Positions 6,913-32,000 of a stretch of 32,000 nt of DNA are shown here, piece after piece. A model generated the notes under the pieces. The model was not told the origin of the DNA, made no database searches, and was given only the letters and a program-made list of their open reading frames with translations. How positions within the stretch are numbered: the first letter of the stretch is position 1; each line of letters starts with the position of its first letter. The DNA is from Prochlorococcus sp. MIT 0801 (lineage in GTDB: Bacteria; Cyanobacteriota; Cyanobacteriia; PCC-6307; Cyanobiaceae). Made by a program: the position numbers and the translations under genes. Location: NCBI RefSeq assembly GCF_000757865.1, contig NZ_CP007754.1, positions 1,170,001 to 1,202,000 on the forward strand. Direction: 5' to 3'.

Positions 6913-6922
6913 GTTTTTATTT

Positions 6923-10809: not shown

Positions 10810-10882
10810 ATATGATTGGCGACTCTTAATACAAACGCCTAACATATTGCGACCTAATATCTAATTATTAGCTAGTAAAAAC

Positions 10883-11179: not shown

Positions 11180-11701
11180 ATGGAATCTAAGAAATTATTT
11201 TCTAGGAAGAATTTACTCAATTCTCTTGCTTTCTCTGGTGTTCTTTTCGTAAATACATTGAACCCTCAAGGGATTAGTGCTGAAAGTCAAAAAAGCATAG
11301 ATATTCCTAAAGTTGTTTCTTACAGATCAGCATCATGCGGTTGTTGCAAGAAATGGGTTAACCATCTACGCGATAATGGATTAGAAGTTGTTGATAACGT
11401 TATTGAAGATGTCTCAGCAATAAAAAAACAATATAAAATTCCCAATAATTTAAGATCATGCCACTCTGCTCAAATAGGTGAGTACAAGATTGAAGGACAT
11501 GTGCCGATTGAATCAATCAAAAAACTTTTCAAAGAGAAACCAAGTATCTCTGGGATAGCTGTTCCTGGTATGCCTCATGGTTCTCCTGGAATGGAATTAC
11601 ATTCACACGAATCACATTCTCACGATAATTATGAAAGTTATAAAGTAGTTTCATTTAGTAATAGTGGTAAAACAAAAATATTCGACAAAATTTATCCCTA
11701 A
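11180..11701 (+). CDS. DUF411-family periplasmic metal-binding protein (CopG-like, copper-associated)
   Basis: Signal peptide, then SASCGCCKKW...CHSAQIGEYKIEGHVP...GIAVPGMPHGSPGME, which is the diagnostic CGCC / EGHVP / PGMP-GSPGM motif set of DUF411. A His-rich tail follows (HSHESHSHD). Confidence 0.8.
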   Translation: MESKKLFSRKNLLNSLAFSGVLFVNTLNPQGISAESQKSIDIPKVVSYRSASCGCCKKWVNHLRDNGLEVVDNVIEDVSAIKKQYKIPNNLRSCHSAQIGEYKIEGHVPIESIKKLFKEKPSISGIAVPGMPHGSPGMELHSHESHSHDNYESYKVVSFSNSGKTKIFDKIYP

Positions 11702-11715
11702 GACAAGTACTTATT

Positions 11716-11952
11716 ATGTTAATAATGAGTTTTGTTCTTAGGAAGTTAAAAATTCTCACTTTTTTCTTTTTCTTAACTCTTCCTTTCAATCTTTATTCTC
11801 AAGCTCATATGAAGGGTACATTTTATTCTGAGCAAGAAGCTGAAAAAGAATCATTTGAACTTGGTTGCATTGGAATACATAAAAATCAAGATAAATGGCT
11901 TCCATGTAAAAACGAAAAAGAGCTACATAAGAAACGTCGAGCGAATCAATAA
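11716..11952 (+). CDS. Small secreted protein (78 aa)
   Basis: N-terminal signal-like helix (LKILTFFFFLTLPFNLYSQA). Its stop overlaps the next start (TAATG at 11950-11954), which suggests translational coupling. Confidence 0.45.
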   Translation: MLIMSFVLRKLKILTFFFFLTLPFNLYSQAHMKGTFYSEQEAEKESFELGCIGIHKNQDKWLPCKNEKELHKKRRANQ

Positions 11953-12218
11953 TGAAAAAACTATATTCAAGTCGGAAATGGCATAGAAGATTTGCAGTAA
12001 TTCTTGCGGTTCCATTATTTTTAACTATTTCAAGTGGTTCTCTGTACCCCATTTTATTAGCTTTTGGTATAGATGCTTTTTGGTTGATCAAATTACATAC
12101 AGGTAATTTTGGATTTATAAATTTGCAGTCTATTTATTCACCATTAACAGGACTGTCAACTTTGGTACTTCTTTGCACTGGAATCTCTTTATTGAAAAGA
12201 CCTTCAAAAACAAACTAA
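11952..12218 (+). CDS. Small two-TM membrane protein with a PepSY-TM-like motif
   Basis: 88 aa. The pattern ...WHRRFAVILAVPLFLTISSG...KLHTGNFG...LSTLVLLCTGISL resembles a single PepSY-associated TM unit. Confidence 0.45.
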   Translation: MKKLYSSRKWHRRFAVILAVPLFLTISSGSLYPILLAFGIDAFWLIKLHTGNFGFINLQSIYSPLTGLSTLVLLCTGISLLKRPSKTN

Positions 12219-12290
12219 AAAATTGTTTGCACAGCACAAAGCTATGCCCAAGCGCATGTAAAGGAGGTCACATTTAGTTTTGAAAAATTC

Positions 12291-12623
12291 TTGATAATGT
12301 CGATGGAGAACCAACAAGTTCTACGCTTTCGAATCACTAATACTATGGATGACACCACCAATAGGTGCATTTCTCTAAAAGAAGACCCATTGCAAAGCGC
12401 TCAATCAAAACGCTACCAAAAACAATTACCAACTGAGAAGTGGAAACCCACTGATGATCACGCGATTGACATCATTAGTGATTATTTGATTTGTGTTAGA
12501 GAAGATATGAACGCAATGATTGAAGAGCTTGGTTGTCCTAAAGAGTATGCCGCAGGTTTGCTAAGAGCTATTGCTGATGGATATGAAGACCTCAATTCAA
12601 ATTCCGAGGACTATTCCAAATAA
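12291..12623 (+). CDS. Hypothetical acidic protein (about 106-110 aa)
   Basis: ORF with possible starts at TTG 12291, ATG 12297 and ATG 12303. No family recognised. Confidence 0.45.
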   Translation: MIMSMENQQVLRFRITNTMDDTTNRCISLKEDPLQSAQSKRYQKQLPTEKWKPTDDHAIDIISDYLICVREDMNAMIEELGCPKEYAAGLLRAIADGYEDLNSNSEDYSK

Positions 12624-13796: not shown

Positions 13797-14030
13797 TGTA
13801 TTTTTTTGATATTTGCTAACTATCTCGGTAACTTCCTCACCATGAATCCAGCGAATTTCGCCAGAATCTACGTTGGCAATTTGAAAGAGTGAGGGTGCAT
13901 CAGTATCACGAGAGCCTCCAACAAAAGTAAGAACTTTTCCAATTTGGTCCTTTTCATAAAGAACAGCGTCACCGCATTTAACTTTTAAAAATAAAGGCTC
14001 TTCAACTAATTCTTCATCGCTATAGCCCAA
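13785..14030 (-). CDS. Hypothetical protein (81 aa) downstream of ligase-like gene 1
   Basis: ORF overlapping the end of the upstream ligase-like gene by 25 nt. No family recognised. Confidence 0.45.
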   Translation of the reverse strand: MGYSDEELVEEPLFLKVKCGDAVLYEKDQIGKVLTFVGGSRDTDAPSLFQIANVDSGEIRWIHGEEVTEIVSKYQKNTMLT

Positions 14031-14791
14031 TTAGGTGCTTTTGAATTTACTCCAAGTCTCTTCTTTGTTTTCCCAAAATTAACTTTGACGACTATTCCAT
14101 CAGTTGGGAGATTTTCGAAAAGTTCACCAGCAAGCCATTCTTTATGCCATCTCTTAACTTGGAGAGGATCAGCAGTTCTATTAGTTGGCGGAATTTCAAA
14201 GAACCATGATTCTAATTTTTTTATATCTTCAATTTCATCTGCAGTACTTCCAAGAATTTCATACGCCACAAAACTAAGACCAGCACCAGTTGGGTTTTTC
14301 TTTCTTAGGTGTCCTCCAGCCAAAGCTTGGGATTTAGTTCTAGAAAGATTTGGCCCATAGAGTTCGCCACGGATCTCAAGTGGTTCTTCTGAAACTGCAA
14401 TTCCATCTTCTGGAAGTTCCACAGGAAGATTGCAAATAGTTCTAGCCGCTTCAAGTACATCTTTTCCACTTCTAGTGAATGCTGCTACTAAGGTTCCAGA
14501 TTGGTATCGAAGACCTAAAGCACAGCCATCAAATTTTGGTTGAACAATCATGGTTTCATTTCTGGCTTTCTCTGCCCACCATTCGCTAAAGCAATAATTA
14601 TCCAAACTAAGTAACTTCATTTTCTGCTGGAAATATGAATTCTGAGGATCAATTTCCTTAAGCCTATTTTCTAACTGATCAAATTGCTTGTCACTTACTT
14701 GAGCATTGCCCGATCTGTAGGCCACATCTAGCTTTTCGACCAAGCCAGAAAGTTCTTTTGCCCACGTTTTGCCCACGCTATTATTTCCCAT
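14006..14791 (-). CDS. Stand-alone NAD-dependent-DNA-ligase-type adenylation domain protein (domain Ia plus nucleotidyltransferase only), copy 1
   Basis: The start is taken at ATG 14789-14791 (MGNNSVGKTW...). The tracked N-terminal 32 aa (..GSTRSQVRILSPR..) is read-through of the tRNA fragment. LigA motifs are present: domain Ia YRSGNAQVSDKQFDQLENRLKEI, motif I QPKFDGCAL (KxDG), motif III IRGELY, motif IV DGIVVKV and motif V NWAIAMK. At 261 aa it has no OB, Zn-finger, HhH or BRCT domains. Confidence 0.7.
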   Translation of the reverse strand: MGNNSVGKTWAKELSGLVEKLDVAYRSGNAQVSDKQFDQLENRLKEIDPQNSYFQQKMKLLSLDNYCFSEWWAEKARNETMIVQPKFDGCALGLRYQSGTLVAAFTRSGKDVLEAARTICNLPVELPEDGIAVSEEPLEIRGELYGPNLSRTKSQALAGGHLRKKNPTGAGLSFVAYEILGSTADEIEDIKKLESWFFEIPPTNRTADPLQVKRWHKEWLAGELFENLPTDGIVVKVNFGKTKKRLGVNSKAPNWAIAMKN

Positions 14792-14879
14792 TAAAAAAGA
14801 CAGGCTGGGAAACCTGTCTCTGACTGATCGGGGCGACAGGATTCGAACCTGCGACCTAGTGCTCCCAAAGCAATCGGTT
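14789..14879 (-). repeat. att repeat 1: 3' 44 nt of tRNA-Pro(UGG) (14828-14871) plus its terminator; not an intact tRNA
   Basis: The reverse complement reads GC-TTTGGGA-GCACT-AGGTC-GCAGG-TTCGAAT-CCTGT-CGCCCCG-A. This gives the anticodon loop with UGG, the variable loop, the T-arm, the 3' acceptor strand and discriminator A. The hairpin AGACAGG/CCTGTCT plus T6 follows. No 5' acceptor strand (CGGGGCG) or D-arm lies upstream. It is 88/91 identical to 24511-24601. Confidence 0.85.
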
Positions 14880-14991
14880 GTACACATGAGACTGGTATAA
14901 AGATCTAATCCCTGACTAAAAATATTCTAGCTATTGTAATGAGTTTGAGACTAACAATTGAAATGAATATCTATTTGTTTTAACTTGTATT

Positions 14992-15038: not shown

Positions 15039-16424
15039 ATGAAAGCTCGTTCAGAAGCACCAGATTGGGTTCAAAGCATGAGGATCTTTCTTAGGGGGGA
15101 GGTTGGAGCAAACTGGCAGGTCACAACAAAAGGCAGGAGAAGGGCTTGTTTAGGTGTCAGGTTTGACGATGGAACGAGAGTCTTTAAAAATCTCCCTGTC
15201 TTATGGGAGAGGGCACAGCAAGCGAAGATCCAAGAGCTTGTTCTTGAAGTACATGAATTAGTGGTCAAGAAAAAGATATGCGGACTAGACGAAGCTATTG
15301 ATCGAATCAACAAAGCCAATACAGAAGTTCCTAGTGCAGCAGACAGGGCAAATCCAATGCTTCTTCTTGCCGCATGGGAAAAATACGAACACTACAAGGT
15401 GAAACAAAAAGGGGATGTCACTCAAGCGAATTGGAATAAAGAATATGGAGGGAGACCAAATACAAAAATCAACCCTCCAAGGCCAAAGGACAAAGGGAAA
15501 ACATATTTAAGGTTTAAGCAAATAGTGAAAACGGCTACCAATGCTAATGAACTATTAATCCAAATTGGTGACTACGAAGATAAAAATAAAAAGCCCGAAC
15601 CTATTAAGCCTTTAGAAGCTGGAAGTCGTAGCAGGCAAATCAGAGTTCAACATGTTGCAGCTTTTTTAAGATGGGCAACTTCAAAAAAATCAGGTTATTT
15701 ACTAAATCCAGAGAATTGGTCTGCGCCACCAAGGAATGCAATCGATGATTACGTAGGAGTTAAGTCAGCCAAGAAAAAGAAAGAAACTTCTAGTCCAACA
15801 GTTGCGATTGAAGATGACGATCTTTTAGCGCTATTAGGCTCACTACCCATAGACATAGACAAAGAAGAGAAAAGGCATCGATTAAGAGATCGTGCAATGG
15901 AGTGGGACTTTGCTCTAAAGCTTGCAATTACTTATGGCCTACGTCCTGAGGAAGTACGACATGAGCATCTAACGATCAAAAAGAATGACAAGGAATATAT
16001 GTTCTGCACCTATTGCAAAAAGTCTGGGGGAGGTATTACCAGGCCTCGCAGACTATGGCCGATCCATCCCGAATGGGAGAAGAAATGGCATTTATTGGAA
16101 CGTATTAAAAAGAGAGATCCTTTACCAAGAATGAAAGCTGGTGCAGGTGATGCATTTAGGAATTACCTACGTTTTAATGAGGTCTGGAAAAAATTAAAAT
16201 CAGATGTAGGTGTTGTGCCCTACAGCTTTAGACATTCCTATAGCAAGCGGGCACATCAAATTTACAAATTAAGTGATACAGAAGTTGCAGCTTTTATGGG
16301 TCACAGTGTCCCTGTACATAACGCTCGCTATGCTCAGTGGAGCACCGAAACTATGCTAGAAAGATCAATGGAACGTGCTATAAAATTCAGGAACATCCTC
16401 GAGGGTTCGCAAGTGGTCAATTAA
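15039..16424 (+). CDS. int: Tyrosine recombinase / integrase 1
   Basis: 461 aa. The catalytic signature is GLRPEEV (Arg I), FRHSYSKRA (HxxR) and MGHSVPVHNARYAQW (His/Tyr nucleophile). It lies about 160 nt from the att repeat. Confidence 0.9.
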   Translation: MKARSEAPDWVQSMRIFLRGEVGANWQVTTKGRRRACLGVRFDDGTRVFKNLPVLWERAQQAKIQELVLEVHELVVKKKICGLDEAIDRINKANTEVPSAADRANPMLLLAAWEKYEHYKVKQKGDVTQANWNKEYGGRPNTKINPPRPKDKGKTYLRFKQIVKTATNANELLIQIGDYEDKNKKPEPIKPLEAGSRSRQIRVQHVAAFLRWATSKKSGYLLNPENWSAPPRNAIDDYVGVKSAKKKKETSSPTVAIEDDDLLALLGSLPIDIDKEEKRHRLRDRAMEWDFALKLAITYGLRPEEVRHEHLTIKKNDKEYMFCTYCKKSGGGITRPRRLWPIHPEWEKKWHLLERIKKRDPLPRMKAGAGDAFRNYLRFNEVWKKLKSDVGVVPYSFRHSYSKRAHQIYKLSDTEVAAFMGHSVPVHNARYAQWSTETMLERSMERAIKFRNILEGSQVVN

Positions 16425-17150: not shown

Positions 17151-17375
17151 ATGTCCACGTCCCAATGGGTATCGACTTCTAATGCTGCAAAGGCCTTAGG
17201 ACTTAATCCTGTAACTCTTCTCCGAAAAAGAGTACAGCTAGAAAAAGATGGTTTCTTAAAACCCAACATCCATTACATAAGAACAGGGCAAACGAAGAAT
17301 TGCTCTTATTTATGGAAATTAGATGCACTTGAGGAATTACTCAGCAAATGGAAAGCTCCTAAGAGGTCCATCTAA
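17151..17375 (+). CDS. Small HTH DNA-binding protein (excisionase/AlpA-like)
   Basis: 74 aa. WVSTSNAAKALGLNPVTLLRKRV is a helix-turn-helix of the MerR/excisionase type. Its stop overlaps the next ATG (TAATG at 17373-17377). Confidence 0.6.
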   Translation: MSTSQWVSTSNAAKALGLNPVTLLRKRVQLEKDGFLKPNIHYIRTGQTKNCSYLWKLDALEELLSKWKAPKRSI

Positions 17376-19225
17376 TGAAAAATACATCTATCAATAAAGC
17401 ACCAACACAAGCGAAGTCGGACGACTTTACAAAAGAGTGGTCCAACAAAAGAGAATGTACTTTTAGTCATTTCAAGCAGTGGTGTAGAGAAGCCGAATAC
17501 TTAGTGCTATCAAACTATGAAGATCTAGATGCATTTAAAGGTGAAGAGATTCTTGAACCCATAAGTATTGAAAAACTATTCGAAAATGACTTCGAACCAC
17601 CAAGAGTTGGATCAGCCTATAAAAAATATTGTCGACTTGAATCTCAATATTATTTATTTGATTTAGACCACCCTGACTATCTAGGAAATTATTGGAATCT
17701 AATTGGTTTACTTTGGGGAGCACTACAAACTCATCAAGACCCTTATTTTCATAAGTGGAATTATCGAATGAAGTGCAATATCCAAGAAGCAAAGGCGTCT
17801 GGGGAAGATTATTCCATTTACGAAAGGATGATTCATCTAAACGACGTCGCAGAAATTGAGCCTATTGAAGAATTTGAAGCGCGCTTACTTCTAATAAAAA
17901 TGAAAGCTGGTGTGGTTTATAGACTTATTGAGGGAAAAGACAAGCCAGATATAGAGGATTATTTAACACCCATGGAACATATCAAGTGGCTCAAAACAAA
18001 TCACGTTCCACTAAATCCACCCTCAATAACAACAAAAACAGAAGACTCTTTAACGATCTTAGAGAAAGGTTGGAATGAGATAAAACTACTCCCTAGACCT
18101 AGTCAAAGGCGTTTAGGACTAAAGCAGCTACAAAAAGAGTTGAAGATGAATCCCAAAGAGCTCAGCTCTCTTATTTATGAATTGCAAGTGGAGAAGTCAT
18201 CTAAGAATCAAAAACTAAACAACTTCAATGCTGTCATGTCAGGTGAGTTCAACCAGAAGACACTTGTAGATAATTTCATCATGAGCGGGACAGTATCCAT
18301 GCTTGCAGGGGACGGGGGCTCAGGTAAAACCTCGTTGCTCTATCAAACAGCAGAGTCAGTTACGACAGGTAAGCCATTATTTGGAAGACTCACTACTAAG
18401 AAAAGAAAATGTCTATTAATCCAAGGTGATGAGAGTCACGTTAATGCACAAACAAAATGGAAAAGGATGAACTTGCAACCCGATCCAGCTCAATGGGAAT
18501 TGTGTTGGAAATGGACTGCAAGCCAACTTCCAGACCTAAGACAGTGGATTGATAACAATGGTTTTGGCCTTGTCCAAATGGATTCTTTTGGAGTTTTATT
18601 TGGTGGTAATGAGGCTATGAATGATGCTGAAATTGGACTCTACATGTATGAACTAAACAGTATTGCCGCGGATACTGGAGCAGCAATTGTGGTAAATCAT
18701 CATCTAAAAAAAAGGACACATAAGAATACTAAGGAGGCAGCGAAATGGAAACCATCTTTAGGAGACTTCTTTGGTTCGTCATACATCGTTAATGGAATTA
18801 GAGATGCTTGGGGTTTATGGAAAAAAGGAGAACATCTTGATGGATCGCCCATCTATGGATTGAAGTATCTCAAAGATAATTCTGGATTAATAGAAAATGG
18901 CTTTGTTATGAACCTACTAGGATCTGAAGAATCCTATAGATACTCTCTATTTGGTGACGAGGGTGGAGTTAAAGAGCTCGACGTTCGTAACACTATTCGT
19001 AGTCAACTTCATTCAGGACTTAAATCAAAAGCAGGGGAATGGCTACCATTTACAACTCTAAAAACCTTTACGCCTAAAGCAGATGACAGATCAATAAAAA
19101 GAGAATTAGCAAATTTATTTACTCATGCTGCTGCTACAGGTATAGAACGTAGACCAATTGAATCAGGACACGTTGGACGTCCCAAGTATGAATACCGTTT
19201 TGCAATATGCGGGGTGTGTGATTAA
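17375..19225 (+). CDS. Replication protein: about 300-aa N-terminal domain of unknown type plus a RepA/DnaB-like RecA-fold P-loop ATPase (AAA_25-like)
   Basis: Walker A MLAGDGGSGKTSLLYQ is present. LLIQGDES and Walker B-like GLVQMDSF follow, then VVNHHLKK. This arrangement is typical of plasmid RepA / AAA_25 helicases. The gene is translationally coupled to the HTH gene. Confidence 0.7.
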   Translation: MKNTSINKAPTQAKSDDFTKEWSNKRECTFSHFKQWCREAEYLVLSNYEDLDAFKGEEILEPISIEKLFENDFEPPRVGSAYKKYCRLESQYYLFDLDHPDYLGNYWNLIGLLWGALQTHQDPYFHKWNYRMKCNIQEAKASGEDYSIYERMIHLNDVAEIEPIEEFEARLLLIKMKAGVVYRLIEGKDKPDIEDYLTPMEHIKWLKTNHVPLNPPSITTKTEDSLTILEKGWNEIKLLPRPSQRRLGLKQLQKELKMNPKELSSLIYELQVEKSSKNQKLNNFNAVMSGEFNQKTLVDNFIMSGTVSMLAGDGGSGKTSLLYQTAESVTTGKPLFGRLTTKKRKCLLIQGDESHVNAQTKWKRMNLQPDPAQWELCWKWTASQLPDLRQWIDNNGFGLVQMDSFGVLFGGNEAMNDAEIGLYMYELNSIAADTGAAIVVNHHLKKRTHKNTKEAAKWKPSLGDFFGSSYIVNGIRDAWGLWKKGEHLDGSPIYGLKYLKDNSGLIENGFVMNLLGSEESYRYSLFGDEGGVKELDVRNTIRSQLHSGLKSKAGEWLPFTTLKTFTPKADDRSIKRELANLFTHAAATGIERRPIESGHVGRPKYEYRFAICGVCD

Positions 19226-19422
19226 TGTCATAAATTAAAAATGTCATCCCCAAATACGTTCCAGTGCAATAGAAGAGAAAGATACAATAATAATAAATGA
19301 CAAAAAACTAACACCCCACAAGTGCTTGCTGGTTCGTACAAATTAAAAGTGTAGACACATAAATTAAATGATTTTTTCTAACTTAAAAACCCTAAAATAA
19401 CTACAGAAAAATTTCTAGCACT

Positions 19423-19581
19423 GTGAGATTCGAAAGAGAACTGGAACGTCTACGTCAACGGGTACAACAGATATCGATTGAACAAGCACCACCGACTCTT
19501 CGTATGGTGATGATTAAAGATGAAATAATTCCAATAGATCTAACCGTATGGGATTTACCCATAACAGTGGAGAGTAAATAA
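19423..19581 (+). CDS. Possible 52-aa ORF abutting the next gene (below the ORF-track cutoff)
   Basis: GTG start. The translation is RFERELERLRQRVQQISIEQAPPTLRMVMIKDEIIPIDLTVWDLPITVESK*. The stop is immediately followed by the ATG at 19582. Confidence 0.25.
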   Translation: MRFERELERLRQRVQQISIEQAPPTLRMVMIKDEIIPIDLTVWDLPITVESK

Positions 19582-20028
19582 ATGACTTTGACTGATTTCG
19601 AACCAAGAAGAAAAGGAAGACCTTCTATAGAAGAGATACCTCTGCCTCCTCACGTACAAAGAGCACTTGTTCTCAGAGGCAATGGATCGTCATGGAAAGA
19701 TGCTGCTGAATCAGTAGGGATGGATTATCGAACACTCAGGAAATACGTCAGAGATCATCCTGATGCAAATGAGTTCCTGGAACGTCAAACACAAGACGCT
19801 TTAGATCAAAGCCATAGCAAACTCATTGCTGCAGCACCTGCAGCGGCACAAAGATTAATCGATGTAATTAATGACGAGGGCAATAGAGGTTATGTAGTTG
19901 TTCAAGCTGTTGAGAGTTTATTTAGGATTATTGATCGAGGTATTACAGATCGAGAGAACGCTGAGCAACTCAAAGAGATTAGAAACTCTATAAATGCTCT
20001 TGAAGGTGGAAAGATAATTAATGTCTGA
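19582..20028 (+). CDS. HTH-domain protein resembling a phage small-terminase subunit or regulator
   Basis: 148 aa. RKGRPSIEE...GSSWKDAAESVGMDYRTLRKYVRDHPDANEFLERQ is followed by a helical coiled region. This layout is common in TerS proteins. The functional call is tentative. Confidence 0.4.
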   Translation: MTLTDFEPRRKGRPSIEEIPLPPHVQRALVLRGNGSSWKDAAESVGMDYRTLRKYVRDHPDANEFLERQTQDALDQSHSKLIAAAPAAAQRLIDVINDEGNRGYVVVQAVESLFRIIDRGITDRENAEQLKEIRNSINALEGGKIINV

Positions 20029-20063
20029 ATGGCCTAGATAAGCTAGAAAGGTAGAAAGAAGTA

Positions 20064-21293
20064 ATGATGTTTATGCAACTAAGGCTATTACTCTTTCTTT
20101 CTCTTCTACCCTCAATATTCTTCATAGAAGCTAAGTCCTTTGGAGTATTAAGTGATAACTGCAATGCGAACAAATACACACCAGCTGAATTATTTAAATC
20201 GAAAGTAAATTCCGTCGTTGTTATCACCTCTGAAGGAAGTCAAGGGAGTGGATTTGTAGTTGAAAGACGCAAAGGTCATTCTTATATACTTACCAATGCT
20301 CATGTTGTCGGTAATAAAAAACGAGTAGACGTTAAATGGAATGATGGAGAAGTTGATCGAGCAGAAGTAGTTGGGAACTTGGGGGGGGATAAACTTGAGA
20401 GAGATCTTGCATTAATTAAAGTCGCTGGAACGAAAGGAACACCAATAAAACTTAGTAAAAATTCGCCAGAAGTTGGTTCTGATGTCGTCGTGATTGGAGC
20501 ACCTAGTGGTCTCGAATTTAGTCTGACAAGAGGTGTTGTTAGTCAAATTAGAGATCGAGAGAATTTTGTCCAAATTGATGCCCCTGTAAATCCTGGCAAC
20601 AGCGGTGGTCCTGTATTTAATAATGGTGGATGTGCGATTGGTGTTGTTACCTTCAAATCTGGTGAAGGGACAGAGGGACTCAACTTTGCTATCGGGAATA
20701 AGCAAATAACAAAGTTTTTAAAAAATCCAATTATTGATGAAGAGGCAATTAATAAACAAACACTTGCGAATCTCCCATTACCACCAAAATCAATTGAAGG
20801 ACCATTCCCGCCTTTTGAATTTGAATATGGAGAAACTTACAGTCAAATACAAGTTAACAAAGGGAATAAAGAATGGACTACTCTCACTGTAACAACTGAA
20901 TTGTCACCTAATAGAGAGCCAAAAACAAATCGATTAATGATAGAAAATAAATCCATCAGAAAAGATGAAGACTGGTTTTCTGTAAAAGCTATAAGAAACG
21001 CCCTATCAACCTTTGCCGAGGTCACCGTTCAAAAAACAGGTCAAAAAGTTTATCTCTCTGGTTCCTACCCTTTTGAAAGAAAAATCAATTGCAAAGATCA
21101 AATAGTTCAGCATGGTCCAACAACTTATAAAGGGAGAACAACGGGACCAACTAACTATTACAAAGTTGGTCCAGGCTGGTTTATGACAAAGTACGAGATC
21201 AAAAAAGGCAAATTAGTTGATCTGCCCGGGAACAGCAAAGAAGTCGATCAAATGGAAAACGCTGCTTTGTTTAATTATTTTTGCAAAGGCTAA
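20064..21293 (+). CDS. Secreted trypsin-like (S1C/HtrA-type) serine protease with a non-PDZ C-terminal domain of unknown function
   Basis: A signal peptide is present. The catalytic triad context is TNAHVV (His), RDLALIKV (Asp) and GNSGGPVF (Ser). The last about 190 aa contains no recognisable PDZ domain. Confidence 0.85.
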   Translation: MMFMQLRLLLFLSLLPSIFFIEAKSFGVLSDNCNANKYTPAELFKSKVNSVVVITSEGSQGSGFVVERRKGHSYILTNAHVVGNKKRVDVKWNDGEVDRAEVVGNLGGDKLERDLALIKVAGTKGTPIKLSKNSPEVGSDVVVIGAPSGLEFSLTRGVVSQIRDRENFVQIDAPVNPGNSGGPVFNNGGCAIGVVTFKSGEGTEGLNFAIGNKQITKFLKNPIIDEEAINKQTLANLPLPPKSIEGPFPPFEFEYGETYSQIQVNKGNKEWTTLTVTTELSPNREPKTNRLMIENKSIRKDEDWFSVKAIRNALSTFAEVTVQKTGQKVYLSGSYPFERKINCKDQIVQHGPTTYKGRTTGPTNYYKVGPGWFMTKYEIKKGKLVDLPGNSKEVDQMENAALFNYFCKG

Positions 21294-21344
21294 AAACCAA
21301 AATATTCACAAAGGACACATACCACAATCCTTCAAAAACTTCAC

Positions 21345-21470
21345 ATGAAATCTCAGGAATTATCTGCTGAAGAACAAGCTCTCTGGAATGAGGTTGAAGA
21401 AAGAATTGATCGTAATTTGAAAAAAGAATTATTTGAGAGGCTTAAAGAGTATGGTTTGAAAATTGAATAA
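21345..21470 (+). CDS. Possible 41-aa helical peptide (below the ORF-track cutoff)
   Basis: Manual translation gives MKSQELSAEEQALWNEVEERIDRNLKKELFERLKEYGLKIE*. Confidence 0.2.
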   Translation: MKSQELSAEEQALWNEVEERIDRNLKKELFERLKEYGLKIE

Positions 21471-21550
21471 GTTTTTATGTGATATTTGTTTTAACTAGAT
21501 CAGCTAGAAAGGTATAGAGATCTATATTCCTCATACAGAAAGAGTCCTAA

Positions 21551-22753
21551 ATGAAGCCAGACTTACGAATCACTGATCCTGATGATTTCGAGAAAGTCGT
21601 AGCAAGACAATGTATGACTTTGGGCTACGAAGTCGTAATGCCAACAAAAAACAATCCCGGATACGACATTGAATTAATTAAAGGGAAAGAAAGAATCGCT
21701 GTACAAGTTAAATGTCATAAAGCAAAGCAAAACACAGGTCAATACAAAAAGTTTGTTGCTTTTTTAGAACTTCCAATAGCTTCAAATTTCACTAGTGGAT
21801 GGTTTATCTCGCAAAGTGGATATAGCAAAAATGTTTTAGCTCTTGCTGAAGCAGATCGAGAGCCAAATCTAAAGCTAGGAACTTCCTCACAAAGAGGAAT
21901 CAAATGGAATTATGACCCTGATTTAGCCCCAGGAGAAAGCCCTGAAGAAGAGAAAGAAGAGGATATAGAGGAAAAGAATGTAAAAGATGAAGCAGTCAAA
22001 TATTTTGGAATTTTCACTTGTAAAGGAGGTGTTGGGAAAACGACTGTTGCAGCTCATCTGGCTGGTGCATTCGCAATAATGGGTTATGACGTAATCCTGC
22101 TAGATCTTGATCCTGACAGGAATTTGAGGAAATTGTTTCTTCAAGATCAGGACTCTGATGAAGATGCTTCTTTGTATATCCCCCCCAATAAAAAAGGTTT
22201 TTCAGGAGCAACAATCACTGTCTTAAATGCCGACGAATGGGATGAAAGGTCATATTCCGAAAAAGTCGTTATTTGTGATTGCTCTCCTGTCCTTTCCGAA
22301 AATCCTAAGTATCTAATAAGAAAATTTGATTATTGCGTAATACCCACAACCCTTAATCCTCTTGGTATCGCAAAGAATGGCGATGTGATCACAAGAACTT
22401 TCAAACATATTAGAAAAATGAATAACAAGGCTGAAATGTTTTGTTTGATCAACTCATATAGCGGAGCTCAATCATACGAAGAAAGAAATAAACATCTATT
22501 AGCCTTGGTTGAAAAGCCAATCAAGGAATATCAAAAGAACGATCCAAAATGTCAACTTATACATCCTGATTATGTGAAGATTAGAGAAAGTAGAGCTCTT
22601 CGATATTGGGGGTATCACCTTGTCGATGGATCTCCACCTCAATTAGCTTTCAAATCTGTTGCTAATAGAAGTGCTCCAAGAACTGACTTCATGCAATTAG
22701 CAGAATATTTAGAGGATCACACCTCAATCACTTCAACAAGAGAACTTGATTAA
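21551..22753 (+). CDS. Fusion protein: N-terminal Mrr-like PD-(D/E)xK nuclease domain plus C-terminal ParA/MinD-type deviant Walker A ATPase
   Basis: The N-terminal sequence ...GYDIELIKGKERIAVQVKCHK gives a D...E-x-K core as in Mrr_cat. An acidic linker follows (PEEEKEEDIEEKNVKDE). Then GIFTCKGGVGKTTVAAHLAGAFAIMGYDVILLDLDPD gives the KGGxGKT deviant Walker A and Walker A' region. Confidence 0.75.
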   Translation: MKPDLRITDPDDFEKVVARQCMTLGYEVVMPTKNNPGYDIELIKGKERIAVQVKCHKAKQNTGQYKKFVAFLELPIASNFTSGWFISQSGYSKNVLALAEADREPNLKLGTSSQRGIKWNYDPDLAPGESPEEEKEEDIEEKNVKDEAVKYFGIFTCKGGVGKTTVAAHLAGAFAIMGYDVILLDLDPDRNLRKLFLQDQDSDEDASLYIPPNKKGFSGATITVLNADEWDERSYSEKVVICDCSPVLSENPKYLIRKFDYCVIPTTLNPLGIAKNGDVITRTFKHIRKMNNKAEMFCLINSYSGAQSYEERNKHLLALVEKPIKEYQKNDPKCQLIHPDYVKIRESRALRYWGYHLVDGSPPQLAFKSVANRSAPRTDFMQLAEYLEDHTSITSTRELD

Positions 22754-24510: not shown

Positions 24511-24601
24511 CATTAAAAAAGACAGGCTGGGGAACCTGTCTCTGACTGATCGGGGCGACAGGATTCGAACCTGCGACCTAGTGCTCCCAAAGCGATAGGT
24601 T
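24511..24601 (-). repeat. att repeat 2: 3' 44 nt of tRNA-Pro(UGG) (24550-24593) plus its terminator; not an intact tRNA
   Basis: 88/91 identical to 14789-14879 in the same orientation. The sequence to its right (the tRNA 5' side) has no D-arm or CGGGGCG acceptor strand. Confidence 0.85.
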
Positions 24602-24606: not shown

Positions 24607-24714
24607 AAGCTATAACTTGTCTTTAAAGCTATAACTCTAATTATATCTACAGTTTCTTTCTAATACTTTCTAATACTTTCTAAAATATGGTTGCTTTTTC
24701 CCAAGTTTTTCCCA
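24607..24714 (+). promoter_or_regulatory. Cluster of short direct repeats between att repeat 2 and int2 (candidate arm-type sites/promoter)
   Basis: AAGCTATAACT occurs twice (24607-24617, 24626-24636). CTTTCTAATA occurs as 2.6 tandem units (24656-24685). TTTTTCCCA occurs twice (24695-24703, 24706-24714). None of these resemble the GAGATCCC repeats of element 1. Confidence 0.4.
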
Positions 24715-24747
24715 ATAATATACCTAGTGCCTACAACGTTTTGATAA

Positions 24748-25965
24748 GTGCCACAAACCAAGCAAAAAGAAGAATGGGTTAAGCACTACAAAGACCAACT
24801 AAAAGAATTCTTTGGCAAAGGTTCTGGTTGGTATGTATCGCAAAGTGCTGGAAATATTAAATTAGAAGTTCTTGTTAATGGAAAAAAGGAAAGTAGAACT
24901 CTTCCTTATAAATGGAGCAAATCTGGCTTTGCTGTTGGAGTAGAGGAAATCAAGCAAATATTTAAAAGGTTCCATACTGGAAAAACAACAACGCTTGCTG
25001 GTGCTTGTGACATCACCAGTGCATCCAATTCAACAATTGAGACTAACTGGGAAGAACTATTTACTGCTTATAAAAAATTTGTACCGCAAGCCTCTGCCAA
25101 AACATGGGGAAAAAGTTATTACAAGACATCTGAGCAATTAGAGAAAGCAATAAAACCGCCTGTTTTAAATCAAGTGGAAAGATTGATGGCGAAAAAGAAA
25201 AAGCCTACAAATGGAACTGAATTAATGATGCAGGCGTTGGAGCCTTGGGAACAAGGATCAAGAGCAAGGCAAATTTCTAGAAGAGTATTAAAAGGATTTC
25301 TTGAATGGGCAGTATTAAATGCAAAGCTCACCGCGAATTTCGCTCCGCCTGCTGTTATTCCAGAGATCAGAGATGATAAAAGAATTGGTTATGCCTTAAG
25401 TGATATTCAGATTCTTTCGTTAATAGAAAACGAACCGGATGATAAATGGAAATATGTCTACCAACTTTTAGCGGTATTTGGATTAAGGCCAGCAGAATTA
25501 AAATATCTAAGAATTATTGATGGTGAACTTTGGTGTACTTACGGGAAAAGCATGGGTGGGAAGAAAGGTAAGAAAACAAAACGTAGAAAACTATCACCTA
25601 TTCCTTTAAAAAATATTGATGGGAAAGCCATTGAATTCAACCTTATAAAAAGAATCCAACTTGGTGAAGAAATGCCACCTCTAGGGCGTGAAGGTGAGAC
25701 AGCTATGGCACTTAGAACCCATCTAAGAGGATGGAAATTATGGAAGCAATACAGAGAGGAGGCAACAAAAATCGATGAGGTTCTCGTCCCTTATACGTTT
25801 AGGCATCGATACGCAAAAGCTAGTCATGCTTTGGGTTTTCCAATCAAAAACATTGCTGAAGCAATGGGACACACAGCCGAAGTCCACCTCGAAAATTATG
25901 CAAGATTTCAACCAGATGGAACTACCGAAATGTATAAAGCTGCCTTTGAAGGGATAGCAGCATGA
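24748..25965 (+). CDS. int: Tyrosine recombinase / integrase 2
   Basis: 405 aa with a GTG start. The catalytic signature is GLRPAEL, FRHRYAKASH and MGHTAEVHLENYARF. It shares the family with int1 but is clearly divergent. Confidence 0.9.
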   Translation: MPQTKQKEEWVKHYKDQLKEFFGKGSGWYVSQSAGNIKLEVLVNGKKESRTLPYKWSKSGFAVGVEEIKQIFKRFHTGKTTTLAGACDITSASNSTIETNWEELFTAYKKFVPQASAKTWGKSYYKTSEQLEKAIKPPVLNQVERLMAKKKKPTNGTELMMQALEPWEQGSRARQISRRVLKGFLEWAVLNAKLTANFAPPAVIPEIRDDKRIGYALSDIQILSLIENEPDDKWKYVYQLLAVFGLRPAELKYLRIIDGELWCTYGKSMGGKKGKKTKRRKLSPIPLKNIDGKAIEFNLIKRIQLGEEMPPLGREGETAMALRTHLRGWKLWKQYREEATKIDEVLVPYTFRHRYAKASHALGFPIKNIAEAMGHTAEVHLENYARFQPDGTTEMYKAAFEGIAA

Positions 25966-26726
25966 ACACCAAAGACCTAGCCAAAAAAATTCAATATTTT
26001 GATGATTGCTACAGGAAAGGAGAGGCCAAAATATCTGATGTTGAATTTGATCAGCTAGTTAAACAACTCAAAGCAAGAAATCCTAATCATCCTGCAATTA
26101 ATCCAGAAGGTATGAAACTTCTTTCACTTGGTAATAGCTGCTTTTCCGAATGGTGGGCTGAGAAAGCTAGAAATGAAACCATGATTGTTCAGCCTAAATT
26201 TGATGGCTGCGCTCTTGGCCTTAGATACCAATCTGGAACATTAGTAGGAGCCTTTACTAGGAGTGGGAAAGATGTAACCGAGGCAGCTAGAACTATTGCA
26301 AATATTCCTCTGGAGCTGCCTGAACTTGGTGAGTCAGTAAGTGAAAGTCCAGTAGAAATTAGAGGCGAATTATATGGGCCAAATTTAAGTAGAACTAAAA
26401 GCCAAGCATTAGCAGCTGGTCATTTAAGAAAGCGAGTTCCCACAGGTATGGGGCTTTCTTTCGTGGCTTATGAAATTCTTGGATCAACTCAAAATGAAAT
26501 TGATGATATTAAAAAATTAGAATCGTGGTTCTTTGAAATTCCGCCAACAAATAGAACTGCAGATCCAAAGCAAGTTAAAAAATGGCATAAAGAATGGTTG
26601 GCTGGTGAATTATTTGAGAATCTTCCTTGTGACGGAATTGTCGTCAAAGTTGCGTCTGGAGCAGCCAAACAAAGACTTGGTGTTAATTCAGTTGCACCTA
26701 ATTGGGCATTGGCTTTGAAGGATTGA
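25962..26726 (+). CDS. Stand-alone NAD-dependent-DNA-ligase-type adenylation domain protein, copy 2
   Basis: 254 aa. Its ATG overlaps the int2 stop (ATGA at 25962-25965). Motifs are YRKGEAKISDVEFDQLVKQL (domain Ia), QPKFDGCAL (KxDG), IRGELY, DGIVVKV and NWALALK. It is about 80% identical to copy 1 outside the N-terminus. Confidence 0.75.
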   Translation: MNTKDLAKKIQYFDDCYRKGEAKISDVEFDQLVKQLKARNPNHPAINPEGMKLLSLGNSCFSEWWAEKARNETMIVQPKFDGCALGLRYQSGTLVGAFTRSGKDVTEAARTIANIPLELPELGESVSESPVEIRGELYGPNLSRTKSQALAAGHLRKRVPTGMGLSFVAYEILGSTQNEIDDIKKLESWFFEIPPTNRTADPKQVKKWHKEWLAGELFENLPCDGIVVKVASGAAKQRLGVNSVAPNWALALKD

Positions 26727-26885: not shown

Positions 26886-29108
26886 ATGACTCTGAGTGGT
26901 GTTACTGCATCTGGAAGCAAATATACAGTCTCAGTTATCAATCGACCTGCAAATTTAAACGTAAGCGAATCCCTTTTAGCCCTAAATGGTGAAGCTGCAA
27001 TTAAATATATTGGAGAATATCTCAAATGGCAGGGAACACTAGATATTGGTATTGAATTTGATATCAACAATACAGTTAAGAATTGGGAGGAAACTGGCAA
27101 TGCATATGCCTGTCATGGAGGACATGTATTCGATAGTAAATCAGGAGAATACAGGACAGCTGCATATGTTGAAGCAACAACTGGTATAGATACAACAGCT
27201 AGTAATGGAAGGGAAATAGATGCGGGAACATGGATTTCAAGTTGGGTAACTGATGTTCTTTGGAAAGGATATGGAGATGAAACAGCATACATAGTTGATG
27301 ACTATAGTTACTCTCTTGATGCAGTCGAGGAAAATCCAACAATATCTAATTCAGGAGAAATGAATTTCTTCGCCGTGATGGTTCATGAAATTTTTCATGG
27401 CTTAGGATTCTGGGCAATAAATAACCCTACCTTCTCTCCCTTTGATTTCGACATTATTGGTGACAATGGCTATGTCACTGGAACCAATATCAATAAGGTA
27501 TTAGGCACTTCAATGCCTTGGAACCTGACCCAAGCACATCATGCATTAGGAGATTCAAAACATAATCTTATGTATGAAAGAAAATCGGGAGCGAAGTATC
27601 AAATAACAAATTTAGACCTAGCTGTTCTTGCAGACTATGGATGGGAAATCTACAAATGGGCTGAAAAATTTGTCAGATTATCTGCAAATAATAATGTCGT
27701 TTCAACTGGAGCCGATGAAGGCGAATCAATCACCATAAATATAGACACTGATCATATTGTTGGTGGGGCTACATATAATTATTCAATTTCTGGTATTTCA
27801 GATTCAGATTTAAGTTCTGGCTCAACAAATGGATCGGTCACAGTTGATTCAGATGGAGATACAACTATAACTTTTGGCTTAAAATCTGATGCACTCACTG
27901 AAGGAATAGAAAATTTAATTTTTTCTATTGATGAAGAAAGTATAACCATTCCAATCAATGACACCTCTTTAACTAATCAAACTCCATCTAATATCAGCCT
28001 CTCATCTTCTTCCTTTAATGAGCATATTGCTGCAGCTTCTACGGTCGCAACTCTCTCAACGACGGATGCTGATTCATCCGATACGCATACCTACTCCTTA
28101 GTAACTGGCTCAGGTGATACCGATAATGATTCATTCACCATTGATGGTTCATCTTTAAAAATCAAAGCTTCTCCTGATTACGAGACAAAATCTTCCTACA
28201 ACATTCGCTTACAAACAACTGATAGTAGTGGTGAAACCTACGCCAAAACATTCACGCTTTCTGTTAATGATATCGATGAATTCACCGCAACCATTTCAGG
28301 AACATCCAGCACTGATAGTTTACAAAGTACGAGTGGTAACGATTCAATCGATGGGCTAGGTGGTACAGATACAGTTACTTATACCGCCAGCTTCTCCAAC
28401 TATTCCTTTACCCGTGGCACAGACACCCTACAAATAGCCGATCAACGTACGACAGGTACAACCGATGGAACCGATACTCTTAAAAATATTGAATACATTC
28501 AATTTACTGATCAAACAGTAGAAGAATCAAAAGTAGACGTAGTTAAAACCTATAGCGGTAATTTTAGCGATTATAAGTTCTACAACAAAGGTAATGGTAA
28601 ATATGAGATCAAAACTGATTCTGGCTATGACGATATCACTGGCTATCCTCTACTAACATTTACAGGAGAAGCAACAACTAGCTCCTTCCGTGATGTAAGT
28701 GCCATTGTTGATATCAAAGGGACATTTGACCAAGTCACTGGTTTAGACACAGACGATGCAAAGATGTTCCGTTTATATAACGCTTCTTTCAAACGCCTTC
28801 CAGATCCTGATGGGTTGAAGTATTGGATTGGTAAATATAGTTCTGGAGAGAATGATTCAAGAGCAGTTGCATCTTCTTTCTTAGTTTCTGCAGAATTTAA
28901 GGAGCGATACGGAGAGAACGTTTCTAATGCAAAGTATGTTGAGACTCTTTATACAAATGTCCTTGGTAGGGACTATGACCAAGATGGTTATAACTATTGG
29001 CTAGGTAATTTAAATGCAGGTACTGAAACAAGATATGAACTCCTTTTAGGCTTTGCAGAAGCAGCAGAAAACAAAGCACTCTTTACTGAGATGACTGGTT
29101 TTGGTTGA
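26886..29108 (+). CDS. Large multidomain extracellular-type protein: HExxH metalloprotease-like region, Calx-beta-like, cadherin-like and C-terminal DUF4214 domains
   Basis: [13 protein letters not shown] gives an HExxHxxG motif. [13 protein letters not shown]...[22 protein letters not shown] is Calx-beta-like. [18 protein letters not shown]...[36 protein letters not shown]...LSVNDIDE is a cadherin repeat. The C-terminal YWIGKY...AEFKERYG...[22 protein letters not shown] is DUF4214. No N-terminal signal peptide is present, and an in-frame stop lies 36 nt upstream of the ATG. Confidence 0.8.
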
Positions 29109-29120: not shown

Positions 29121-29354
29121 TTAAAGCACGTTATAAACTCTTCTTTGAATATTTCTTCTAATTTTTTGTTCTAAAGGTATACATCCTTGAGGTTGGAGTT
29201 GGAAGAATACTCTTCCTGAAATTGACTCGACTACATAATCATCAAGTTTACCCTTATTTAACAATCTATAGAGGGTTTTAGTAGATTTATATCCTAATAA
29301 TCGTGCTGTCTGGGAGATAGTGAAAACTTCGAAGGTTCTTGTTTGTTGTTTCAT
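29121..29354 (-). CDS. Small HTH DNA-binding protein (excisionase/regulator-like)
   Basis: 77 aa. FTISQTARLLGYKSTKTLYRLLNKGKL is a helix-turn-helix. Confidence 0.55.
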   Translation of the reverse strand: MKQQTRTFEVFTISQTARLLGYKSTKTLYRLLNKGKLDDYVVESISGRVFFQLQPQGCIPLEQKIRRNIQRRVYNVL

Positions 29355-29592: not shown

Positions 29593-31194
29593 TTAGGTAG
29601 CAATGGCGTCAACCATTGCAGCAAATGATTGAGGGTGCCTAACAGCTATATCGATTGATTGTAAGGCTCTAATACCTGTTGTTCCTTTTGCAAAGTCTGT
29701 ATATGGATCAACAAGAATTTCTAAGTTACCCCACATTCCAATCATTAAGTCTGCAAAGTTTCCATAAATAATTGCACTTAAATTTGATCCAGTGCCTTTA
29801 GATAAGTTGCTTGGAACATTGTTGCTAACAACTAAACGTCTACCGCTGATCCTTGAATCACCTAAAGATGCACCATAAGGATTTAATAGATAATTACTTT
29901 GATCGTCTTTAAGTTGTGATAGTGCTGCTTCAACTTTGGTATTAGTTAAATAGCCAGCCGTTGAGACATCAGCGTTATCAATAGAGATTTCTTTTTTTAG
30001 CTCAAGTAAATGATCAATTGTTGGTGCAAGACCATTTGTTCCACCTGCAACGCTACCTATTCCACTTGTGTTGAGAATTCCTCTAGGTTGATTAGATGAT
30101 CCTGTTCCTGTAATAGCAGCTAAATCAATTGCCTCTGCAATAACAGCTAGGAAATCACTTCTTACTAAACCCTCTATCTCTGGTGTTGCCTGTAGATCCA
30201 TTAAATGACTGAATTTGCTATATGCACCAATGGTTTTGGGTGTCATTGCAATACTGCCTAAAGCTCCAGTTGACTCAGTAATTGAGTCAGAATTGTCTGC
30301 ACCAATCCAATAGGCACTGGCTGATCCACTACGAGTAGGAATATCGACATTGCCCACTAATGATGGAAGCATTGTTGCTCCAAGTTCAGCTACAGCAAGG
30401 CTGTTTCTGAGACTATCTACAAATCGATCTGCAAGATGTTCAGTCGCAATCAGATTGCCACCAGAAGCAGCAGTGCCAGCCACATAAGCCCTTGTAGACC
30501 AACCGTTAGAAGGGACGAAGAAGCCTTGAGTTCTTTTGCCATTAACTCTTTCAAGTTCTGTATTTATTTCTAACTCTCTTCCAGATAAACCTCTGCCAGA
30601 TGCGATACCTTTTGCAGCTTGAATAATAGAGAAATTATCTGATTCTCTTGCAAACTCATCTGGAATAGATGTGTTGATTGGTTCGTAGTTTGAAACTGGA
30701 GTTGTTGTCATTTGATTAGCAGGAATTGATGTGGAACGATTAACGCCAATAGATGGATCAGCAGGGATTGAAACGATGCTCAACTCAACTGGTTGCCATG
30801 AAATAGCTCTTGTTATTTCTTCGTCTTGCTCTACTTGATTGACTTGATATCCAACAGAAATATTTTCCAGAATATTATTTTCAACATCTTTTCTAATCTC
30901 TAATGCTCTTGGATTAGTCGCCCATTTAATAGTGGCTTTGCCTCTCTTGTCTTCGATCCAAGCTTTGGTGACTTTGCCCAAAACTTGGTTGGGATCATGG
31001 TTGAACAATAGTGGAGCTGCACCTGTATTTAGACGAGTTAAATCAACAGATTCCTCATCATGGTCGAGTACTTCCTCTCCAAAATATCTTTCTACTGGTT
31101 GCTCACTACTAAATGAAAAAGTGAGATTATCCCGTTCTGTTTGAGCATCCATGGGAAGAAATCTCCTTTTGATTTCAACGGTTTTTGTAGTCAT
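29593..31194 (-). CDS. Fusion of HK97-family prohead serine protease (S78) and HK97-fold major capsid protein
   Basis: The N-terminal about 150 aa reads FSFSSEQPVERYFGEEVLDH...LLFNHD...LGKV...ISVGY...ELSIVSIPADP, the S78 His/Ser context. The C-terminal about 330 aa reads GGNLIATEHLADRFVDSLRNSLAVAELGATMLP...AYWIGADN...KFSHLMDLQATPEIEGLV...ILVDPYT, which is Phage_capsid (HK97) family-like. Confidence 0.85.
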   Translation of the reverse strand: MTTKTVEIKRRFLPMDAQTERDNLTFSFSSEQPVERYFGEEVLDHDEESVDLTRLNTGAAPLLFNHDPNQVLGKVTKAWIEDKRGKATIKWATNPRALEIRKDVENNILENISVGYQVNQVEQDEEITRAISWQPVELSIVSIPADPSIGVNRSTSIPANQMTTTPVSNYEPINTSIPDEFARESDNFSIIQAAKGIASGRGLSGRELEINTELERVNGKRTQGFFVPSNGWSTRAYVAGTAASGGNLIATEHLADRFVDSLRNSLAVAELGATMLPSLVGNVDIPTRSGSASAYWIGADNSDSITESTGALGSIAMTPKTIGAYSKFSHLMDLQATPEIEGLVRSDFLAVIAEAIDLAAITGTGSSNQPRGILNTSGIGSVAGGTNGLAPTIDHLLELKKEISIDNADVSTAGYLTNTKVEAALSQLKDDQSNYLLNPYGASLGDSRISGRRLVVSNNVPSNLSKGTGSNLSAIIYGNFADLMIGMWGNLEILVDPYTDFAKGTTGIRALQSIDIAVRHPQSFAAMVDAIAT

Positions 31195-31631: not shown

Positions 31632-32000
31632 TTACCCCGCCTCGGAAGAAGCCAAATCTACTGAGGCTTCTGAGGCAGACTTTCTCCATAGTCTTGGTTG
31701 CTTGACTCCATTAATTCGTTTTTGATTTTTATCTTGGACGAAACCTAATTCTCTTAGAGCGTTACCAGCTTCCTTACAATCGTGAGCTGTTATACGACCA
31801 CGATCTCTGCAACCACTTAAGTGGAGAGCTGTTTCTGCAGAGAATCCATCTGATCCTTGCTTATTTACCCACTCATACAAGCTTGAATAAAAAGGATGCT
31901 CAGCTTCAAAGTCACTATTATTCAACTCTGATTGAGCATGTTCTTCAGGAGACAGATAACACTTGTAGCCATTTAGATAAGCGAGGTGAGCAGCTTTCCA
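31632..32000 (-). CDS. Partial CDS (C-terminal about 122 aa; N-terminus beyond the window): C-terminus of a VirE/P4-type primase-helicase-like protein
   Basis: The frame stays open upstream of the tracked TTG (31925) to nt 32000 (WKAAHLAYLNGYKCYLSPEEHAQSELNNSDF...). The tail ...ITAHDCKEAGNALRELGFVQDKNQKRINGVKQPRLWRK resembles the winged-helix-like C-terminal segment found at the end of phage/plasmid primase-helicases. The call is tentative. Confidence 0.45.
   Translation of the reverse strand, partial: WKAAHLAYLNGYKCYLSPEEHAQSELNNSDFEAEHPFYSSLYEWVNKQGSDGFSAETALHLSGCRDRGRITAHDCKEAGNALRELGFVQDKNQKRINGVKQPRLWRKSASEASVDLASSEAG

Follow-up and report, generated by a model that had tools for sequence, protein, structure and literature searches.

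Short relatives of LigA, the NAD-dependent DNA ligase, are already known from Prochlorococcus. Hjerde et al. (bioRxiv 10.1101/2020.05.11.089284) reported a group of proteins of less than 260 amino acids (aa), named ND-Lig tr, which contain only domain Ia and the nucleotidyltransferase (NTase) domain, are located in genomic islands, form a clade of their own and were probably horizontally transferred. In the same study, high-light Prochlorococcus was found to have no full-length LigA and an ATP-dependent ligase instead. Among the hallmark genes of the mobile elements called tycheposons, Hackl et al. (bioRxiv 10.1101/2020.12.28.424599) listed, in the replication class, the profile lig_IRVE-NAD (DNA_ligase_aden); the assignment was made by homology and context alone, no mechanism was proposed, and the searched part of their text holds no statement on translational coupling of this gene. 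Here we describe a member of this family, lig2, in a stretch of 32,000 nucleotides (nt) from Prochlorococcus sp. MIT 0801 (NZ_CP007754.1, positions 1,170,001-1,202,000, forward strand), which is referred to below as the window and to which all coordinates are relative. The window belongs to a genomic island of Prochlorococcus in which tycheposons stand in tandem at tRNA-Pro(TGG), their insertion site, and lig2 together with int2, the gene of a tyrosine recombinase, forms the attachment-site (att)-proximal operon of a tycheposon that resembles phage-inducible chromosomal islands (PICIs). The family and its tycheposon location are already published, and lig2 is a further member of it; what is added here is the conservation of the catalytic residues and the selection acting on them, the lack of a nearby partner gene, counts of recombinase adjacency, and a sister clade in phages. 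The tycheposon study later appeared in Cell (2023).

Two other systems are close enough to serve for comparison. In E. coli LigA (671 aa), specificity for NAD+ comes from domain Ia, and no domain other than the NTase is required for every step of the reaction; the boundary between the NTase and the OB (oligonucleotide-binding) domain lies at 316/317, and the OB (317-404), Zn (405-432), helix-hairpin-helix (HhH, 433-586) and BRCT (587-671) domains follow (PMC4797296). Domain Ia, the NTase motifs I, III, IV and V and the predicted fold are common to this enzyme and lig2, but all four of the following domains are absent from lig2. The T5-like split NAD+ ligase of PR1 phage (PDB 9hu3 and 9i5i, the former being the heterodimer on nicked DNA) is an example of LigA function shared out over two proteins, subunits A and B. 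Its separate adenylation polypeptide is ~30% identical to lig2 and has the same compact NTase domain. However, the OB domain is still part of its subunit A (323 aa), and the Zn and HhH domains come from the adjacent gene, whereas lig2 has no OB domain and no subunit B nearby. The int2-lig2 operon is made up as follows:

int2, 24748-25965, plus strand: tyrosine recombinase of 405 aa with a GTG start, facing into the element
ATGA overlap, 25962-25965, plus strand: bases common to the int2 stop codon TGA (25963-25965) and the lig2 start codon ATG (25962-25964)
lig2, 25962-26726, plus strand: truncated NAD-type ligase of 254 aa, with domain Ia at residues ~1-40 and the NTase domain at ~55-254

A first-pass annotation of the same DNA, made by a model from the letters and their open reading frames (ORFs), had proposed that int2 and the gene of a 254-aa protein overlap by ATGA. 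Direct reading of positions 25962-25965 bore this out, with both ORFs where they had been placed: the junction reads gcagcATGAacacc, and four bases are shared by the stop and the start. The recombinase itself scored 26.6 bits against PF00589, just short of the Pfam cutoff of 27.1, and matched the integrase family phrog_1 at 2e-15. Its catalytic residues R247, R352-H353, H375 and Y384 were found to be invariant in an alignment of nine relatives, and judged by sequence int2 is a genuine tyrosine recombinase despite the borderline Pfam score. It is 46-49% identical (tblastn) to the integrases of two related loci, L010 and L018, which likewise lie upstream of a short ligase. A 4-nt overlap between recombinase and ligase recurs in 10 related loci (those listed being L008, L009, L010, L011, L014, L017, L018, L119 and L121), so it is not a chance feature of the window.

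The first-pass annotation had also described the 254-aa protein as domain Ia plus the NTase core of LigA and nothing else, and this description held throughout. The only Pfam family matched by lig2 was PF01653 (DNA_ligase_aden), the profile that had been suggested as a check, at 3.3e-23 and 83 bits (cutoff 27). The motifs that had been quoted are present, namely KFDG at residues 79-82, IRGELY at 133-138, DGIVVK at 224-229 and NWALALK at 247-253. Against the NCBIfam LigA model TIGR00575, lig2 covered positions 1-301 of 652 with 95 bits, compared with a curated cutoff of 444. In a LigA hidden Markov model (HMM) of 707 positions, built here from 58 full-length enzymes, lig2 stops at position 340, where the NTase domain ends; in the numbering of E. 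coli LigA this is residue 315, one residue past motif V. The OB, Zn finger, HhH and BRCT domains are absent, and the protein is not a conventional LigA. All sequence matches of lig2 in the PDB were LigA proteins. The structural comparison gave the same result, as the AlphaFold2 model of lig2 had a predicted local distance difference test (pLDDT) score of 87 and was matched by Foldseek to LigA adenylation domains with E values down to 3e-21. That lig2 is a truncated NAD-type ligase module consisting of Ia and NTase is therefore close to certain.

In its length of 254 aa (below the ~260 aa of the family), its restriction to Ia and NTase and its location on a mobile element of Prochlorococcus, lig2 agrees with ND-Lig tr, and it is a member of this described family, which is the same as that of the tycheposon hallmark profile lig_IRVE-NAD. 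The architecture, host genus and genomic-island or mobile location are shared, and no structural difference from lig2 was found. In a species-level genome collection the short-form homologues were confined to Prochlorococcus. Short forms scored 150-350 bits with the family profile and full-length LigAs up to 151 bits. Among 50%-identity cluster representatives there were ~120 matches at E <= 1e-30, comprising both short forms and full-length LigAs, with clusters of up to 452 members. Hjerde et al. did not regard the ND-Lig tr genes as simple pseudogenes, in agreement with what is seen for lig2. In contrast to the present data, they found no synteny and judged the proteins inactive, whereas here the adjacency to recombinase genes was recurrent and the catalytic residues were strictly conserved.

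The conservation was assessed by mapping lig2 onto E. coli LigA. In the NTase domain, K79 corresponds to K115, D81 to D117, G82 to G118, R100 to R136, G135-E136 to G172-E173, R156 to R208, D224-G225 to D285-G286, K229 to K290 and K253 to K314; in domain Ia, Y17, D26, F29 and D30 correspond to Y22, D32, Y35 and D36. The mapped catalytic and Ia residues were invariant or nearly so among 54 sequences down to ~30% identity (the alignments span ~30-88%), and Lys79 is the predicted AMP-accepting residue. The residues of domain Ia that bind nicotinamide mononucleotide (NMN), to which the first-pass annotation had drawn attention, were for the most part retained: Y17, D26, F29 and D30 are conserved, but E. 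coli H23 is replaced by R18, which is itself invariant in the family. The ratio of nonsynonymous to synonymous substitutions (dN/dS), calculated pairwise among close copies, was 0.13-0.22, with values of 0.15-0.22 for lig2, and more than 130 homologues share the same C-terminal end point. Since the catalytic residues and most of the NMN-binding residues are invariant and dN/dS is this low, lig2 looks like an active protein and not a dead relic. The possibility that it is a truncated pseudogene of a host ligA, raised in the first-pass annotation, does not fit the dN/dS values, the common C-terminal end point or the motif conservation and was rejected.

To describe the surroundings of related short ligases, ORF calls and jackhmmer labels were used on all fetched loci, which included 26 Prochlorococcus-type copies with readable upstream sequence; this sample is small and was chosen through the ligase gene. 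A site-specific recombinase adjoins the ligase in 17 of the 26 copies, and the upstream neighbours were distributed as follows:

tyrosine recombinase on the same strand: 8 of 26, with a 4-nt overlap in all 8
large serine recombinase on the same strand, with Resolvase/Recombinase domains: 5 of 26, at a spacing of -4 to +35 nt
tyrosine recombinase, divergent across the att site: 4 of 26
SRAP (abasic-site) protein: 3 of 26
other: 6 of 26

The association with recombinases, for which the first-pass annotation had suggested a survey, is thus non-random, but it is neither exclusive nor limited to tyrosine integrases. Pairs of a serine recombinase and a ligase were found at L008:4136-6744 and L117:2968-5771 and in L121, L013 and L021, with a 4-nt overlap in L008 (MIT 9302) and L121. 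Serine recombinases accounted for 5 of the 13 co-oriented recombinase neighbours here, compared with 27 among 937 elements overall (Hackl et al., bioRxiv 10.1101/2020.12.28.424599). The lig2-like ligase lineage and a 251-aa lineage with ~32% identity were each seen beside both classes of recombinase; therefore it is the position that is conserved and not a particular partner. A three-gene unit is shared by L012:5257-7031, L016:3235-5008 and L019:5258-7031, in which SRAP is followed ~93 nt later by the short ligase and then by a 96-aa ORF; the latter overlaps the ligase stop by 4 nt in all three loci and had no Pfam or PADLOC match.

Marine viral and metagenome contigs contain an abundant sister clade of the family, with 39-46% identity (loci L081-L111 and L123-L200). 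The phage-clade ligase is accompanied by helicase and primase/helicase genes in a replication module, and directly upstream of nearly every such ligase with readable upstream sequence is the gene of a conserved ~250-aa protein (for example L085:5196-5945, then 5986-6765). Attempts to assign this protein gave no Pfam match, and phrog_1924 ('minor tail protein' by annotation) was matched only weakly; its AlphaFold2 model had a pLDDT of 69 and no PDB fold match at E < 0.7. It was not found in the Prochlorococcus loci.

The role that appears most likely for lig2, although we give it an even chance at best, is that of an active, NAD+-dependent enzyme, either adenylyltransferase or strand joiner, working on the free DNA of the element, with DNA binding provided in trans. 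On the strength of the conserved gene overlap, the recombinase and the ligase would be produced together, at the time when the element is excised or has newly entered or integrated and its free DNA has to be circularised, replicated or repaired. Domain Ia would bind the NMN half of NAD+, and Lys79 would attack the adenylate to give enzyme-AMP, as the invariant residues suggest. From the enzyme, to judge from the gene context, the AMP would move on to a 5'-phosphate at a DNA end of the element once this has been excised or has newly arrived, and nicks or cohesive ends would be sealed, or at least adenylylated, during circularisation, replication or repair. Because lig2 has no OB or HhH clamp, DNA binding would be weak or supplied by another protein. 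Self-adenylylation at Lys79 from NAD+ would be expected, since the Ia-NTase unit gives NAD+ specificity and takes part in all steps, and DNA 5'-phosphate ends would be the likely acceptors, since the neighbours (recombinases, SRAP and primase/helicases) act on DNA.

Several points weigh against this role. Resealing of DNA is done by tyrosine and serine recombinases themselves, without a ligase, so the link between int and lig would probably be one of timing and not of shared catalysis. The family has no arginine at the positions aligned to E. coli R200, R218, R277 and R308, which we take to be DNA contacts, and in lig2 the loop of motif Ia and a ~15-aa segment after motif III are shorter than in E. 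coli LigA. A subfamily of ~200-aa proteins consists of the NTase domain without domain Ia (L004:1895-2497, L005:6028-6639, L154, L173, L175, L181, L186 and L192) and is hard to square with a need for NAD+; the DNA upstream of these genes is stop-rich and has no coding potential for Ia, with conserved stretches just before the start codon, and Rfam detected no RNA family upstream of them. Neither the window nor 20 Prochlorococcus loci nor 31 viral loci yielded, in searches with the LigA HMM that covered ~6 kb, a partner carrying the OB, Zn, HhH or BRCT domains, and beyond position 341 of the model there was no match in the window or in 52 related loci. As a control, the same HMM matched the T5-like subunit A to position 416 and subunit B at 7e-24. 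Furthermore, NTase plus OB is the accepted minimal ligase scaffold (PMC7470946), and Hjerde et al. (bioRxiv 10.1101/2020.05.11.089284) found the truncated protein insoluble when expressed alone and judged its activity 'highly unlikely'.

These last observations, i.e. the absence of the four domains in cis and nearby, the insolubility and the accepted minimum, are equally the evidence for the view of Hjerde et al. that the protein is a catalytically dead ligase remnant, kept structurally or for nothing. We regard this view as unlikely, as the nucleotide-binding and catalytic residues are invariant to 30% identity with dN/dS of 0.13-0.22, all copies end at the same point, and the family is large and abundant. 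A different way of accommodating the missing domains would be a working joiner or 5'-adenylyltransferase consisting of the NTase alone, which takes its grip on DNA from the protein encoded upstream, be it a tyrosine or serine recombinase or the 250-aa phage protein; this is possible but doubtful. The tight coupling of the ligase gene to the recombinase gene could also mean that lig2 is an NAD+-sensing accessory of the recombinase, in which the Ia-NTase unit binds NAD+, shifts its shape and tunes integration versus excision to the metabolic or damage state of the cell while joining no DNA. LigA adenylation domains do rotate strongly with NAD+ and have been engineered as NAD+ sensors (titles of PDB 6kdu and 8jyd), and tycheposon hallmark genes respond to DNA damage. 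However, the same lineages pair with two unrelated recombinase classes as well as with SRAP, and specific contact with all of these is unlikely; the phage clade occurs in replication modules without a recombinase, and the invariant lysine nucleophile and motifs IV and V would be superfluous in a pure sensor. Such a function thus seems rather unlikely.

The PICI-like character of the element, with its capsid gene, leads to a further possibility, that of an abortive ligase or NAD-consuming effector, which would adenylylate 5' ends without sealing them, or burn NAD+, so as to hinder a helper phage or the defence of the host. An NTase domain without OB might indeed stall after the second step. We consider this quite improbable, because neither lig2 nor int2 had a PADLOC match, members of the family are part of replication modules in marine phages, in which selection would act against self-damage, and cargo-type elements that are not PICI-like carry it too (L120, with TonB/ExbBD genes). 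An adenylyltransferase or ligase for RNA or tRNA ends, acting at the target tRNA gene or its transcript, is brought to mind by the targeting of tRNA genes by these elements and by the second short ligase of the window, lig1 (described below), the start of which comes 2-3 nt behind a tRNA fragment and its terminator. Yet the sequence and fold are LigA-like and not Rnl-like, no kinase/phosphatase, RtcB or 2H RNA-repair partners were found nearby, and the proximity to the tRNA is accounted for by the geometry of the att sites, which makes an RNA-end enzyme highly improbable.

Two tandem tycheposons lie in the window at tRNA-Pro(TGG) fragments, and besides lig2 there is a second truncated-ligase copy (lig1). 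The remaining features of the int2/lig2 element, together with the att repeat of its neighbour, are:

att repeat copy 1, 14789-14871, minus strand: 3' half of tRNA-Pro(TGG) and terminator
att repeat copy 2, 24511-24593, minus strand: 3' half of tRNA-Pro(TGG) and terminator hairpin, distal end of the int2/lig2 element
short direct repeats, 24607-24730, no strand: between the att core and the int2 start, three copies of CTTTCTAATA, two of AAGCTATAACT and two of TTTTTCCCAA
cargo gene, 26886-29108, plus strand: 740 aa, DUF4214 at 1.7e-34 (Pfam), weak Cadherin and HemolysinCabind matches
small helix-turn-helix (HTH) protein, 29121-29354, minus strand: putative excisionase or regulator, HTH_17 at 1.6e-4, under the Pfam cutoff
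prohead protease-major capsid protein fusion, 29593-31194, minus strand: Phage_capsid at 3e-47, Peptidase_S78 at 4e-9
primase/helicase-like gene, 31632-32000, minus strand: C-terminal part, running past the window end, jackhmmer label PRIHEL at 9e-21

The att repeats are 83 nt long with one mismatch between the two copies, and direct reading of the sequence showed the anticodon loop TTTGGGA; tRNA-Pro(tgg) is one of the 7 tycheposon target sites (Hackl et al., bioRxiv 10.1101/2020.12.28.424599). ARAGORN found no complete tRNA in the window, and from the geometry of the fragments the intact tRNA-Pro should lie beyond position 32000. No RNA family was detected at the att sites with Rfam. Just ahead of int2, the 9-mer ACCTAGTGC duplicates part of the tRNA core, and the direct repeats at 24607-24730 are possible candidates for arm-type integrase binding sites. 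The layout is that of a tycheposon, with a partial tRNA-Pro on the minus strand followed by the inward-facing int2 on the plus strand, and likewise for int1 of the neighbouring element; so is the gene content, as lig, xis-like, primase/helicase and major capsid protein genes are present together with cargo. The presence of the prohead protease-capsid fusion gene makes the int2/lig2 element a PICI-like tycheposon. The gene order to the right of int2-lig2 was seen again in L119, L018, L010 and L008, where the capsid-fusion homologues adjoin pairs of a ligase with a tyrosine recombinase or a large serine recombinase. The small HTH gene was assigned as a putative excisionase or regulator by its position.

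The 740-aa cargo protein contains two DUF4214 repeats with cadherin-like and RTX-like segments and is encoded between the ligase and the xis and capsid genes, which is unusual for a PICI-like element; in L119 and L018 only small ORFs are found at the corresponding place.

The second ligase copy and the integrase of the neighbouring tycheposon are arranged differently:

lig1, 14006-14791, minus strand: second truncated NAD-type ligase, 261 aa from the ATG at 14791, PF01653 at 4e-23
int1, 15039-16424, plus strand: tyrosine recombinase of 461 aa, divergent from lig1 across the att repeat

By BLASTP lig1 is 75% identical to lig2. The ORF holding it spans 14006-14887 on the minus strand, and the start was assigned to the ATG at 14791. 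Att repeat copy 1 ends in ...TTTTTTAATG, and since its final three bases are the ATG of lig1, the gene begins exactly at the element boundary. Int1 has 25% identity to int2 (E 2e-21) and the same invariant catalytic residues. A divergent layout of integrase, att site and ligase was also found in L120, L122 and L152.

The neighbouring tycheposon has four further notable genes at 17375-22753. One, of 616 aa, is AAA_25 primase/helicase-like, and another encodes a small protein resembling sigma-70 region 4. The third product is a trypsin-like protease, matched in PADLOC by the models RT-Protease and LmuA, and the fourth is a 400-aa fusion of an Mrr-type nuclease with a ParA/MinD ATPase. These genes may be defence cargo. 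To the left of lig1, at 1328-12623, lies a phosphate/arsenate/chromate block of typical island cargo, in which no integrase was found. Its genes encode a PstS-like binding protein, a chromate transporter, ArsR, an ACR3-type SBF transporter, DUF3804, DUF1651 and DUF411, and a major facilitator superfamily transporter adjoins a glyceraldehyde-3-phosphate dehydrogenase gene (an ArsJ-like pair). A Cyano-1 small RNA (Rfam RF01701, 64.7 bits) was found at 10336-10400 on the plus strand in this cargo part of the island. The window has a GC content of ~37%, and DUF1651 and DUF3804 are picocyanobacterial families.

No photosynthetic cell in the ocean is more abundant than Prochlorococcus, for which tycheposons are the main route of gene exchange known. 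In the high-light strains, which according to Hjerde et al. have no LigA, the mobile half-enzymes would be the only NAD-type ligase modules of the cell. The coupling pattern suggests co-expression with int2 as a way round the reported insolubility of the ligase alone. Should the short ligases be inactive, their strict conservation would still need explaining. If the grip on DNA did come from the upstream protein, site-specific recombination would be linked to a ligase of a new design, made of two parts, in hosts whose own ligase is reported to be ATP-dependent. If lig2 and its relatives are active, the accepted minimum of a DNA ligase, NTase plus OB, would need revision, and the life cycle of these elements, as well as that of abundant marine phages, would gain a new step of adenylylation or sealing, produced along with the recombinase.

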